From a virus (taxonomy: Duplodnaviria; Heunggongvirae; Uroviricota; Caudoviricetes): 64,000 nucleotides of DNA. Shown piece after piece: positions 14,279 to 63,492 of the stretch (position 1 is its first letter; each line of letters begins with the position of its first letter). A program made the position numbers and the translations under genes. Location of the stretch: positions 286,796 through 350,795 of the IMG/VR virus record IMGVR_UViG_3300049044_000033; one strand, given 5' to 3'. The notes under the pieces are model-generated. The model worked only from the letters and a program-made list of their open reading frames with translations, had not been told where the DNA came from and did no database searches.

Positions 14279-14321
14279 AGACACCCTCCACTAAGTGTGA
14301 TATTTAGCAGAAGACTTGCCC

Positions 14322-23426: not shown

Positions 23427-23458
23427 GTGGTTTCCCTCCTACAAATCCGATCTAAAAA

Positions 23459-23741
23459 TGGAGGGGGTGCCGGGCAGGGCGAACCATACCCGGCGGGGTT
23501 TGAGATTGCTACACAGAGTGTAGCACCCTACTATTTCAACAGCAACAGCGCAGCCTTTGAGCACAAAGCTCGAGAGCAAGTATTGTGGTGGACCGGGTCT
23601 TAGCGGACATCTATAGAGCGCCGTAGCTGTCTATAGAGCCTAACCCTAAGTTAGACCGAAGTCTATTCCACGCTGTTGAAGTCTATGTTCGGGTTCTCTC
23701 TATTTGTCATAGATAACCCACCAACATCGGCTCTTCGATCT
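23459..23741 (-). ncRNA. candidate structured ncRNA B (about 280 nt)
   Basis: TTGACA(23766-71)-N17-TATACA(23743-48); cUUCGg hairpin 23652-65; cUACGg hairpin 23610-37; 9-bp long-range helix 23672-80 with 23535-43; final UUCG hairpin then TTTTT. Confidence 0.6.
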
Positions 23742-23782
23742 CTGTATAGAGGATAGCAACCAATATGTCAATAACCGATCTC

Positions 23783-24120
23783 GGTAGTTGAGGCAGGACC
23801 CAGATCTGGGACTTACGACCAAGGCCAGCCCACCTGCTATTATTCGCTCCTTCCAACTTGGGATTCGCCGGCGGAACTACTAGACCCAATCCATGATCAC
23901 TTAGAATGGGGTTAGGGGTGATATTTCCCTTACTCAACTACCAAAGGCCTAAAAGGCCGTATCACTAGAGACGCGCTCGACGCCTCGTTACACTTTACCG
24001 AGTTAATCCTCAGCCACTTACAACCCCCCGGCGCCACCCGGGCCATCCTTTATGTGTCAGCACACATCCCAGTCACCGGCTGTAAGCTATATGGGTTCAG
24101 GAACAATGTCCCTTAGTGCC
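23783..24120 (-). ncRNA. candidate structured ncRNA A (about 340 nt)
   Basis: TTGCGC(24151-56)-N17-TATAAG(24128-33); begins GGCACT; perfect 10-bp long-range helix 23933-42 with 23783-92; no credible ORF. Confidence 0.55.
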
Positions 24121-24180
24121 AGTAACTCTTATACGGCAGAACGGTGATGGGCGCAATATCTTTCTAAACCTTTTATTCAT

Positions 24181-24214
24181 GGGAATGACCCGGACTTTCA
24201 TCCGGGTCATTCTC
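24181..24214 (-). terminator. hairpin after tail sheath
   Basis: GAATGACCCGGA/TCCGGGTCATTC. Confidence 0.65.
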
Positions 24215-24220
24215 TTTGTC

Positions 24221-60863: not shown

Positions 60864-61082
60864 TTGAGCACTCCAATGGAGGAGATTTCTGATCTCCTCC
60901 AAACGTATGCGGACGAGGCAAGAGCCATTGAGAAAAGCCTGATTAGGATTTCCTGGTATATGAGGGGTTCTGTTGATTTGGATCAAGCATATCGAATGAC
61001 GTATCGTCAGCGCAAATACGCATTTGCTTTGATAGAAGAGAACTTAGATAATACCCAGAAAACTGGGATAATGATGCACTAA
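60864..61082 (+). CDS. small hub/tail-assembly ORF, possibly expressed by -1 frameshift
   Basis: ISWYMRGS...AYRMTYRQR; lies in the -1 frame and is open through T TTT TTC at 60846-52. Confidence 0.65.
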   Translation: MSTPMEEISDLLQTYADEARAIEKSLIRISWYMRGSVDLDQAYRMTYRQRKYAFALIEENLDNTQKTGIMMH

Positions 61083-61459
61083 AGAGCACCGCTCTCTAAG
61101 TAGATGCCGGCAAGATTGGAATCACGAAGAACATGACGAAATTCAAGTTCAATACCCTGAGACAGTTGCTTGAATTCTTCGAAAAGGCCGGCAAGCATCT
61201 TGTTATTGATCTTCCAAGCACCTTGAGCCTGCATGATCGCGAGCTTACTGTCTCCGATCACAACACACTTCTCGAGGCCATTATCCTTAGCCCAGACAAC
61301 CGCCCAGATCAAAGCTGACCATTCCGCAATATTATTAGTTCCCTGGCCGAGGTTCTTCATTGTGAGAGCTTCGGCTTTCTTTTCAAGGTGACAAATCACA
61401 ATACAAGCAGACATCTTGCCTGGATTAGGAGAGCAGCCGCCGTCAAAGTAGATTTCCAT
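61079..61459 (-). CDS. rnhA: ribonuclease HI (single domain)
   Basis: YFDGG, TNNIAEWSAL, GDSKL, HVLRDSN; TTGACT-N18-TATATT promoter at 61466-95. Confidence 0.9.
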   Translation of the reverse strand: MEIYFDGGCSPNPGKMSACIVICHLEKKAEALTMKNLGQGTNNIAEWSALIWAVVWAKDNGLEKCVVIGDSKLAIMQAQGAWKINNKMLAGLFEEFKQLSQGIELEFRHVLRDSNLAGIYLESGAL

Positions 61460-61499
61460 GCTGTCAATATAGCATCCTGAACTACTGAGAGTCAACCAG

Positions 61500-62400
61500 T
61501 CAGCAGTGTCTCCGACCTCTTTGATTTCTATTCTTTTCGGAATCTGAGTTCTTTATGTCTATCTCGAAGCCTTTGGGGCTTCGAGAGCTTACGGTGTTTC
61601 TACAAGCTAGTAAACTAGCTTGTCTGCACACCTTCGCATCTACCTTCGGTTGAACTCTGGAACTTAAAAACGAATTATTGTGAATCTCCACGATTGCTAT
61701 GTGGTATTCGATCTTATAACCTAAGTAGTTAGCTCAGAACGAACTAATTAGAAAGGAAGTAAGTGCTCAGGTCCCCTGAAGCACTTCGGACTTACGCAGT
61801 GATTGAGCTTGCGATTGAGCAAGTAAGGCCGTGATCCCTTTAAGTAATATTCTCCAAATCATCCAGTCACACTGACTTCCCCCGTTCCCGGGAGAAGGTC
61901 AAAAAATATATGGAAATGTTAGATTTCACACAATATGACTGGCGTGGACAATTCGAAGGATCCTAGGTCTGCCATTATATCCTGCACCTTTTCAGTGCTC
62001 ATTGCCGCTTCTTTGATACTAACTCACCAGCTGGTGTAGCTTTCTCTACAGGACGGTCGGTAGAATTGTTAGTTCTACCACTCAACGCTTCCTTTGCTCA
62101 CGCCAGCGGCTCGGGAAGCTTGCTTTCTACTTTTCATAGAAAGTCTAGTCTTTGACTAGGGCGCTCCTTCGTTTGGTCGAGTCGAAGCCTGCCTAGCTTT
62201 CCGCGGTTGAACGAGATACCACTTGCCAATCTAGATCTACTAGATCGTCAAGCCCGCCTGGTGTTTTGACCGCTTGCCAAGCTAAGTCCACTTTACCAGC
62301 CCTTGCCGCACCCGAAATCCGCGGGAAGGGGGTTTGAGGGCATGATCTGCCGCTCCAGTGCCTTTTTCTACAACTCCGTAACCAAAACGGGATAAATAGT
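61500..62400 (-). ncRNA. candidate large structured ncRNA or origin-like region
   Basis: About 900 nt without a credible ORF; more than 10 hairpins; long-range GGACTTA/TAAGTCC and CCAGTCA/TGACTGG complements. Confidence 0.5.
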
Positions 62401-62529
62401 TGTGCCAAAAAGCAGTATAAAATTCGGGTGTGCGTATAGGTGTGTTAGCTGTTGCCTGTATATTAGAATAAAATATTTGCTTTGTAATGCCCGGGTTGGA
62501 GGTCTTTCCTCTTCCCGGGCTTATTTTTT
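62400..62529 (+). ncRNA. candidate late small RNA (about 120 nt)
   Basis: TAAATA at 62393-98, imperfect rod hairpin, intrinsic terminator GCCCGGG/CCCGGGC plus TTATTTTTT (62489-62529). Confidence 0.5.
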
Positions 62530-62664
62530 GGGTTTGTTATAAGGTCTAAAAAGTAGAAAACTGCTAAGTTTCCATTAAGGGTATTTATTAGCAGATAACC
62601 TAAAGAGGTTACGAATCAGCTACATCTGAGTTCGATCTATGGGATACCGAAGCATCCCATATAG

Positions 62665-63492
62665 TTAATACGACTTTTTCTTCGCAATTGCAAATATCTG
62701 TCCAGTTCTTGGACGATCTACATCAGCATAACGAATCAAGTAGGGTACAGGAGTATGCTTGACTTCAACGACCCAAGGCGTGCTGGGAACAGCTTCAACG
62801 CCTGATTGCTGGTGAACCATCAGGAAGTTCCAGTGATTATTAGATTCAAGGTTATGGCCCTGAATAATCAGCGGGTTCTCACAATAGGGATGATAGATGT
62901 GCGTCTCTTCGCGTTTGTCTAGATAACGAACGTCATTGAGAGCAGCACGAGGAATCTGAAGATGTCGCTTCGTAACTAGGTCATGGCTGACTAGAAGATC
63001 GATGGGCTTTGCGTAAACATCCTGATCACCAAACGCTTCTTCATTGCGCTTGATCAACTTTCCTGATTGTTCTTTGTAGAACTCAAGGATCTGGGTTGCC
63101 ATTCCCCTACGCACTAGTGGGTGGAGAACAGCAGGAGCAGTGGCTACACTCATAATGCTAAACATGCGCTCATTAAGAAAACGCTCACCCTTGGTATTCT
63201 TGCCCAACAACATCTTGCGATGTGGTTCATAGGCTTCAGGAAGATTTGCGTCTTCCTTCAAACGATCGTAACCCTTAATGCTCTTACCTTCAGAGGCTAG
63301 AACTGCCCAAAGATTTTCCCAATCTTTGTGTAGGGCCAGTAGAGTATCAGGGAACGTCCGTGCGCGTGGTCCCAAGCCTTCAACTAGAGCATTATAGTAG
63401 GCCAGTTCCTGTTTCATAAACTCTTTGAGGCGAAGCTTGTCCTTTGATTGGACGTCTACCATCACCGTCAATTCGCGAAAACGTTCGTTCAT
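62665..63492 (-). CDS. hypothetical protein resembling a TnpB/Cas12f WED-REC lobe without RuvC
   Basis: N-terminal strand-helix RELTVMVDV...KQELAYYNALVE, helical core, KRHLQIP, beta-rich end ...PWVVEVK; no DLG/E/D RuvC triad. Confidence 0.4.
   Translation of the reverse strand: MNERFRELTVMVDVQSKDKLRLKEFMKQELAYYNALVEGLGPRARTFPDTLLALHKDWENLWAVLASEGKSIKGYDRLKEDANLPEAYEPHRKMLLGKNTKGERFLNERMFSIMSVATAPAVLHPLVRRGMATQILEFYKEQSGKLIKRNEEAFGDQDVYAKPIDLLVSHDLVTKRHLQIPRAALNDVRYLDKREETHIYHPYCENPLIIQGHNLESNNHWNFLMVHQQSGVEAVPSTPWVVEVKHTPVPYLIRYADVDRPRTGQIFAIAKKKSY

Follow-up and report, generated by a model that had tools for sequence, protein, structure and literature searches.

The largest gene-free gap within a 64,000-nt stretch of the virus record IMGVR_UViG_3300049044_000033 (hereafter the window, in whose numbering positions are given) appears, as judged from the sequences of the phage and its relatives, to be a gene for a structured RNA. 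The gene would run on the minus strand from 62660 to 61496 and comprise three structured modules and a variable linker. Comparison of homologous loci revealed selection for RNA base-pairing over the whole length, which consists of a 5' leader, a core of 568 nt and a 3' domain rich in hairpins. We are highly confident that this family of minus-strand structured RNAs is real. The family is new among large phage RNAs and contains a domain similar to the EGFOA RNA; for the function of the phage RNA, only a guess can be offered.

The gap and its fold

The window covers bases 286796-350795 of the record, which comprises 462,455 bp, possesses direct terminal repeats and was judged complete. The virus is a T4-like jumbo phage, whose genes include those for a T4-type baseplate hub, RNase H and a PDDEXK nuclease. 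A simple map, in which open reading frames (ORFs) of at least 90 aa were counted, disclosed an ORF-free gap of 1169 nt (61496-62664) as the largest of the window. The next largest one measured 794 nt (23427-24220), and elsewhere the genes are densely packed. On the minus strand, the gap is preceded by a gene for a 275-aa protein (62665-63492) and followed by an RNase HI-type gene (61079-61495). An earlier note on this DNA, made from the letters alone, had pointed to an ORF-poor and hairpin-rich gap that is unusual in a dense phage, which our analysis affirmed. Short ORFs of 63 and 71 aa do exist inside the gap, but position, strand and frame of gap ORFs all differed among 12 homologues, and the short ORFs are not conserved. 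The note had placed the structure at 61500-62400. The structure was real, but this end proved to be too short, as the RNA runs to 62660. Leader, linker, core and 3' domain fill the whole gap, and each of them is single-copy in the phage genome. The minus strand of the region 61500-62420 folded to -304 kcal/mol (z = -6.3 versus dinucleotide shuffles), while the fold of the plus strand was weaker (z = -3.7). No tRNA or tmRNA was detected by ARAGORN, and blastn gave no match among the phage records of GenBank.

Conservation and covariation of the core

Relatives were found by means of the two flanking proteins, conserved DNA words and exact look-ups for proteins related to the 275-aa protein. In this way approximately 20 distinct loci were obtained from contigs of IMG/VR, JGI, ENA and Logan, and many of these contigs measure 160-480 kb. 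A 17-mer pattern scan of metagenomes yielded 21 loci, just two of which were true new homologues (L042 and L045; such numbers denote loci), the remainder being chance matches without an Rfam family. The RNA was shown to be kept at one syntenic slot by T4-like jumbo phages that form a clade and have genomes of about 460-480 kb. The shared order starts with the PDDEXK nuclease gene (on the opposite strand) and the 275-aa gene; then come 1.0-1.4 kb in which no gene is conserved, the RNase H gene and the baseplate hub gene. The flanking proteins of the relatives are only 40-85% identical. The central 570 nt of the gap could be aligned in seven loci of group A (those of group B carry another RNA, see below) and contained blocks at 85-97% column identity. 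Thus, the gap is more tightly constrained at the nucleotide level than its neighbour genes. Six further group A loci matched the same core profile, which raised the number of sequences to 13.

The RNase HI-type gene is syntenic in every locus but L056 (group A; L056:3332-4879). There, the full RNA has been kept, and the baseplate hub gene comes next, an RNase H gene being absent from this place. L014 (L014:2983-4000; record G002, 480 kb, complete) is a more distant jumbo phage, in which 1 kb separates the PDDEXK gene from the RNase H gene. This gap holds, at the syntenic place, a diverged core RNA, which was detected with R1, our own model of the phage EGFOA-like domain. Neither a leader in L014 nor a homologue of the 275-aa gene anywhere in this complete 480-kb genome was found.

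The conserved core (61861-62428, minus strand) comprises approximately 568 nt and 23 helices, and its profile matched the 13 homologous loci with E values of 1e-70 to 1e-187. For the alignment of these 13 sequences (A4), the RNAalifold consensus served as starting structure and was then edited in two places: a long-range helix was swapped for the local stem of the EGFOA-like domain, and a 3' closing helix was added. The rejected long-range closing helix of RNAalifold (A4-equivalent columns 81-86 with 513-518) was broken in three of seven sequences, whereas the local stem was kept in all. A4 contains 135 pairs in 23 helices, 93.1% of which are canonical, and 66 of the pairs exhibited a compensatory change, i.e., both sides were altered. 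The covariation score amounted to 0.331, compared to 0.05-0.08 in slid controls. When the 3' partners were shifted by one to three columns, pairing dropped to 35-45%, and none of 500 column shuffles attained any of the observed measures. Covariation, which the earlier note had named as a check, thus spoke for its proposal that the minus strand encodes a large non-coding RNA with an elaborate structure. The functional strand was assigned on account of two observations. The consensus (alifold) energy was -129 kcal/mol on the minus strand and -97 kcal/mol on its complement, and G-U pairs were strand-specific: when the same helices were mirrored to the plus strand, canonical pairing fell from 95% to 87%, as 163 G-U cells turned into A-C.

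The stems listed by the earlier note are present in the sequence, and most of them were recovered in covarying helices. In the core these were CTAGTC/GACTAG, CTTTCTA/TAGAAAG, GCTTCC/GGAAGC, GGTAGAA/TTCTACC, CTTCTCCC/GGGGGAAG and GATCTAG/CTAGATT, and in the 3' domain TCTCGAAGCC/GGCTTCGAGA, ACAAGCTAG/CTAGCTTGT and AAGTGCTTCAGG/CCTGAGCACTT. Its long-distance features were lost upon comparison. The complement of GGACTTA (62289) and TAAGTCC (61797) occurs only in the window and L045. Since TAAGTCC pairs locally with GGCCTTAC, within a helix covarying in 10 relatives, the long-range partner had to be dropped. The relatives do not keep the 11-bp inverted repeat 62124-34/62549-59, because one of its arms is the variable strand of a covarying hairpin. 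Finally, only the window has the repeated 12-mer (62229 and 62280); L002 contains part of it.

These data also bear on the idea that the gap acts at the DNA level, as a recombination hotspot, as a scar of homing-endonuclease insertion or as a remnant of decayed genes, or that it simply encodes small translated ORFs. The ORFs of 63 and 71 aa would be candidates for the latter, and the slot does attract endonuclease genes (HNH_3 in L049 and L054, an ORF with HNH motif in the gap of L004 and L006, GIY-YIG in L099 and L100). However, pairing is preserved by compensatory changes, the G-U pairs are strand-specific, the ORFs vary in place, strand and frame among the relatives, and decayed genes would not reach 97% column identity with flanking proteins at 40-85%. 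We regard explanations of this kind as hardly credible.

The EGFOA-like domain

At gathering thresholds, no Rfam family was matched in the whole 64-kb window. In the 1.5 kb from 61300 to 62800, no match to GOLLD, ROOL, OLE, HEARO, group I and II introns, RNase P or tmRNA was obtained at E values up to 10. At relaxed thresholds, rows for preQ1-II, atoC, GadY and the L20 leader appeared; all of them fell on hairpin H3 of the leader and the adjoining T-run and were rejected as terminator-type chance matches. The statement of the earlier note that no Rfam family is present therefore holds at gathering thresholds, but has to be modified for EGFOA (RF02955), the one credible match at relaxed thresholds, which fell just below its cut-off (36.1 bits versus 37.7; E 1.6e-4 in the region, 1.1e-5 genome-wide).

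The matching domain (61945-62074, minus strand) consists of an outer stem around two hairpins with the invariant elements CCGUCCU and AGACCUAG. It was aligned by cmscan end to end with positions 1-108 of the EGFOA model and corresponds to helices 18-20 of A4, which are 97-99% paired and contain compensatory changes; in the outer stem, A-U was replaced by G-C in 6 of the 13 sequences. CCGUCCU upstream and AGACCU.GG in the loop of the second hairpin were invariant in all 13 phages and are also kept in L014 and L048. EGFOA matches were found at the same syntenic spot in L002, L003, L007, L011, L024 and L045. Seven phages including that of the window gave scores of 34.8-37.5 bits, and L014 reached 27.2 bits. 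In 14 control genomes, the EGFOA model had no match. R1 found L014 and L048 at 65 bits, with compensatory changes.

For comparison, the genome collection was scanned with the EGFOA loop consensus. Among 41 loci, there was one real EGFOA (L059). It belongs to a contig of a metagenome-assembled deltaproteobacterial genome (JAJYBI010000004.1; L059:3808-4960), scored 38.7 bits and lies in an AT-rich, gene-free gap of 1153 nt. No homologue of the 275-aa protein was found in its vicinity, and its surroundings did not resemble the phage core. The phage domain shares with the EGFOA RNA (Weinberg et al. 2017, NAR 45:10811) the outer stem with two hairpins, CCGUCCU upstream and AGACCU(A/G)G in the second loop, and also the setting in a large gene-free gap, which in the phage is, with 1169 nt, the largest of the window. 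It differs by an insertion of 35 nt with a hairpin of its own and by being embedded in an approximately tenfold longer RNA, the other domains of which have no counterpart around the true EGFOA. Judging from these features, the domain would best be called EGFOA-like and not a member of the EGFOA family. Whether it is related to EGFOA is, in our estimation, an even bet. With GOLLD, ROOL, OLE and raiA, the phage RNA has in common the size class of 0.6-1 kb, dense helices, strong covariation and the phage context. Unlike them, it has no Rfam match and no tRNA neighbours, and its helices and motifs are others.

Leader, linker and 3' domain

The leader (62489-62660, minus strand) begins at the stop codon of the upstream gene. 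Its first element, H0 (62639-62660), is a GC-rich hairpin, often with a UUCG loop, which is followed by M1 (62612-62638), an invariant single-stranded block of 27 nt, and by a second hairpin, H1 (62595-62612). H2 (62561-62594) is a stem whose loop contains an invariant TAAATA and a small inner hairpin. After the invariant block M3 (62544-62560), which includes CUACUUUAUAGC, and an A-rich linker, the module ends with H3 (62489-62520), a two-tier hairpin. The leader was present in all 20 loci that bear the 275-aa gene, comprising group A, group B and the 40%-identical outlier L048. When each sequence was folded singly, the stem sequences of H0, H1 and H2 were quite different among the phages and the folds the same, which may be taken as covariation in its plainest form. 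Leader and core are connected by a variable linker (62429-62488, minus strand) of variable length and 30-40% column identity.

The 3' domain (61496-61860, minus strand) is a series of hairpins which ends at the start codon of the RNase H gene. The hairpins are conserved in position, and their sequences evolve fast. With a sequence identity of about 50%, it yet revealed the same order of hairpins in 12 relatives, each folded singly. In the four helices that are well aligned by MAFFT (alignment A7), 16 of 23 pairs were compensatory, and pairing amounted to 91% versus 28-40% after sliding. Within one helix of this domain, GGCCUUAC pairs locally with GUAAGUCC.

In the four phages of group B, gene and leader are likewise present, and the covarying RNA behind them is another one of approximately 520 nt. 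In six sequences of this RNA (loci L004:5009-5600, L005, L006, L009, L049 and L055), 31 of 116 pairs were compensatory. Some group B loci additionally contain ORFs of about 150-165 aa, which in L004 and L006 exhibit an HNH motif. A different structured RNA behind the same leader in sister phages suggests a modular 'RNA slot'.

The two ends of the RNA raise the question of a regulatory untranslated region (UTR), which would belong to the 275-aa gene as a long 3' UTR and/or to the RNase H gene as a 5' UTR. It would control the translation, processing, stability or termination of its neighbours in cis and would not be an independent RNA. A leader starting at the upstream stop codon and a 3' domain reaching the RNase H start codon would fit, and the two flanking genes lie on the same strand with no clear terminator between them. 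Nevertheless, we deem it improbable. Known bacterial or phage UTR regulators fall far short of about 1.1 kb and of some 30 or more helices that are conserved, and the nucleotide conservation of the core, up to 97% in blocks, tops that of the flanking proteins. Moreover, the RNA is retained without the RNase H gene in L056, and the core without the 275-aa gene in L014.

Promoter-like motifs, terminator scan and a possible antisense RNA

The hexamer TAAATA was found 24 times in the window, 16 copies being located within the 11.7% of non-coding DNA. Mostly it precedes ORFs on the same strand by 7-60 nt (e.g., at 14301, 17920, 20544, 26654, 30846, 57482 and 59948). TAAATA fits the core of the T4-type late promoter, TATAAATA. 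The late-promoter-like copy in the H2 loop (62582-62587, minus strand) is directed into the RNA and was invariant in 20 loci. We infer that the RNA is probably transcribed late from this site. Some transcripts would read through from the 275-aa gene, because this TAAATA is preceded by H0, H1 and the 5' arm of H2, which all covary. A scan for sigma-70 promoters and terminators gave counts near the shuffled expectation.

On the plus strand, a possible antisense unit of approximately 120-130 nt (62393-62530) lies over the variable linker, beginning with TAAATA at 62393-62398 and ending with H3 and a T-run (62489-62530). This TAAATA is invariant in group A; group B is devoid of it and has retained the terminator-like hairpin. 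The T-rich tail 3' of H3 on the plus strand was present in all 20 loci, and the consensus terminator scan gave only a partial site (62514-62532) for the unit. With such signals, a short antisense RNA over the linker appears possible.

In its layout of genes and transcripts, the locus resembles ColE1 RNA II/RNA I, as a long folded RNA is combined with a possible short antisense RNA, which has its own terminator and covers the 5' part of the former, and with an RNase H gene on the 3' side. The RNA might accordingly be imagined as a pre-primer at a replication origin of the ColE1 RNA II or T4 oriF type, forming an R-loop that is cut by RNase HI so as to prime DNA synthesis and controlled by the antisense RNA. 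Besides the RNase HI gene directly downstream and the possible antisense unit with its own TAAATA and terminator, the neighbourhood would be suitable, as it includes recombination/replication genes (SbcC-like, PDDEXK) and the baseplate hub gene. In T4, oriF lies by uvsY near the hub genes. The likeness to ColE1 is, however, confined to this layout. An inspection of the GC skew, one of the checks proposed earlier, revealed no turning point of the cumulative curve at the locus (348-349 kb of the record) and thus gave no support for an origin, though T4-like phages may well lack such a point. One relative, L056, can dispense with RNase H while keeping the RNA, and selection for pairing over about 1.1 kb exceeds the needs of a pre-primer. 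We therefore hold an origin function to be very improbable.

The flanking genes and the WED-REC protein

The downstream gene (61079-61495, minus strand) encodes an RNase HI-type protein of 138 aa (Pfam RVT_3, 3e-11; RNase_H, 4e-8; PHROG 531). The 275-aa protein encoded upstream (62665-63492, minus strand) had no match in Pfam or PHROG, and phmmer against PDB sequences gave nothing at E values up to 1. Likewise, none of 34 family members matched the Pfam models OrfB_IS605 or HTH_OrfB_IS605 at E values up to 1. An AlphaFold2 model based on 34 homologues (pLDDT 85.7, pTM 0.83) consists of one strand, a helical bundle (residues 16-152) and six strands (177-245). In an exhaustive structure search of about 48,000 PDB representatives, the top 25 matches were all Cas12f, TnpB, Fanzor or Cas12 chains (Z 9.3 to 5.9), and the first unrelated fold followed at Z 5.6. 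The alignments span residues ~3-247 of the model and, in each target, the N-terminal portion with WED and REC (AsCas12f 0-208: Z 9.3, rmsd 3.9, 166 residues aligned; TnpB 1-174: Z 8.8). Foldseek against the PDB and AlphaFold DB clusters gave probabilities of 0.9-1.0. The protein ends approximately 28 residues past the WED strands, and the matches halt at the WED/RuvC boundary of every target; neither a RuvC domain (D-E-D triad) nor a zinc-finger (TNB) domain was found in it. The model thus predicts that the protein folds like the WED-REC half of TnpB/Cas12f, with the nuclease half absent. A profile search of 1.8 billion representatives identified at least 194 clusters (50% identity). The 150 clusters listed were all of 96-345 aa, without a full-length TnpB among them. 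For distant relatives, a profile-based search for loci lacked any stretch that was conserved enough, and one scan with a single protein came out empty.

The fold suggests a further explanation, namely that the RNA is the partner of the TnpB-like protein. The WED-REC protein would bind an RNA encoded 3' of its own gene like TnpB binds its omega RNA, and the complex would either recognise nucleic acids by means of a variable RNA segment or use the RNA as a scaffold, the nuclease having been lost or being supplied in trans. There are parallels. As in TnpB/omega RNA loci, a conserved structured RNA starts directly where the ORF of a WED-REC protein ends, on the strand of this ORF, and H0 and H1 lie upstream of any internal promoter, which points to co-transcription. 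Leader and gene occur together in 20 of 20 loci and are both missing from L014, and a variable segment of 60-100 nt follows the conserved H3. Furthermore, nuclease-dead relatives of TnpB (TldR), some of them phage-encoded, are known to work with guide RNAs as RNA-guided regulators (PMC10705468, PMC10691335). However, the 275-aa protein is devoid of the whole RuvC and zinc-finger half and does not just carry point-inactivated residues. It has no detectable sequence link to TnpB, the listed clusters being short and without a Pfam family, and a Z of about 9 is only moderately over the background of the aligner. The phage RNA is several times longer than omega RNAs. In the guide test, which covered the phage genome, no gap segment of at least 15 nt matched elsewhere. 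Just one 14-mer from the gap was found a second time in the 462 kb of this genome, versus about four expected by chance, which speaks against a self-targeting guide. In addition, the core occurs in the complete phage genome L014 without the protein, group B keeps protein and leader with another RNA downstream, and in the distant homologues L099 and L101 coding sequence follows the gene at once, with the leader motifs absent. Altogether the evidence is divided, and we consider the partner-RNA explanation unlikely, albeit the most interesting of the alternatives.

Role of the RNA

The best reading of the locus, to which we lean with slightly more than even confidence, is that of a new phage RNA that consists of several domains, one of them EGFOA-like, and would act in trans. 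The minus-strand gene would yield a large non-coding RNA of roughly 0.8-1.1 kb by late transcription from the TAAATA at 62582-62587, supplemented by read-through from the 275-aa gene. Its core would act in trans as a folded structural RNA, which may self-assemble or serve as a scaffold. EGFOA RNAs reside in unusually large gene-free intergenic regions and form trimers and strand-exchanged dimers according to cryo-EM (bioRxiv 10.64898/2026.07.01.735769), and it is this report of RNA-only oligomers from which we derive a structural role in trans. GOLLD and ROOL are reported to make RNA-only multimers as well (bioRxiv 10.1101/2024.12.08.627333). A late-expressed, trans-acting structural RNA is our best guess; a specific role as scaffold or in assembly can be proposed only tentatively, and we would rather expect it to be wrong than right. 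The core is probably not a guide RNA, because it persists in the complete phage L014 without the 275-aa gene. The leader was never seen without that gene and would more likely be the binding site of the TnpB-like protein or a 3'-UTR element. We read the locus as modular: the leader goes with the protein, and the core is an RNA gene of its own.

Several points weigh against the trans-acting RNA with an EGFOA-like domain. The EGFOA score stayed under the curated cut-off of 37.7 bits in every phage copy. In the reverse direction, R1 produced in a true EGFOA (L098, filters off) a match of 27 nt to hairpin 2 alone (7.8 bits, E 0.11), though this model, with 1.33 effective sequences, has a short reach. 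The likeness may thus be one shared motif and not a result of common descent. Scaffolding and oligomerisation were extrapolated from two unrelated EGFOA members. Furthermore, the terminator scan disclosed no clear intrinsic terminator on the minus strand. Finally, the slot rather than this particular RNA may be what matters, as four relatives carry another RNA of about 520 nt there.

A combination of protein and RNA is also conceivable. The locus might encode an undescribed jumbo-phage ribonucleoprotein, in which the minimal WED-REC protein is loaded on the leader from its own 3' region and the leader is fused to an interchangeable large RNA cargo, the EGFOA-like core in this phage and the RNA of 520 nt in its sisters. 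The complex would be an RNA-guided or RNA-scaffolded regulator, perhaps acting with the flanking PDDEXK or RNase H protein. We assign a rather small chance to this proposal.

Large structured RNAs of phages and bacteria such as GOLLD, ROOL and OLE are rare, and each of them opened new RNA biology. For the family described here, the comparative evidence is unusually clean in view of no more than about 13-20 sequences. Through it, the orphan EGFOA motif is connected with a much larger RNA and with a defined setting in phages. Even should its function turn out to be modest, the family merits a covariance model, so that the gaps of jumbo phages do not stay unannotated. The gene directly upstream encodes a protein with the fold of the RNA-binding half of TnpB/Cas12f and without the nuclease half, which could represent a new route of exaptation for this scaffold.

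Endonuclease genes upstream of the 275-aa gene

An endonuclease hotspot was noticed directly upstream of the 275-aa gene. In two loci, an HNH_3 gene resides there beside the PDDEXK gene (L049:1937-2398, L054:1942-2406). In two distant relatives, its place is taken by a GIY-YIG (SegE-like) gene (L099:1867-2412, L100:1477-1917).

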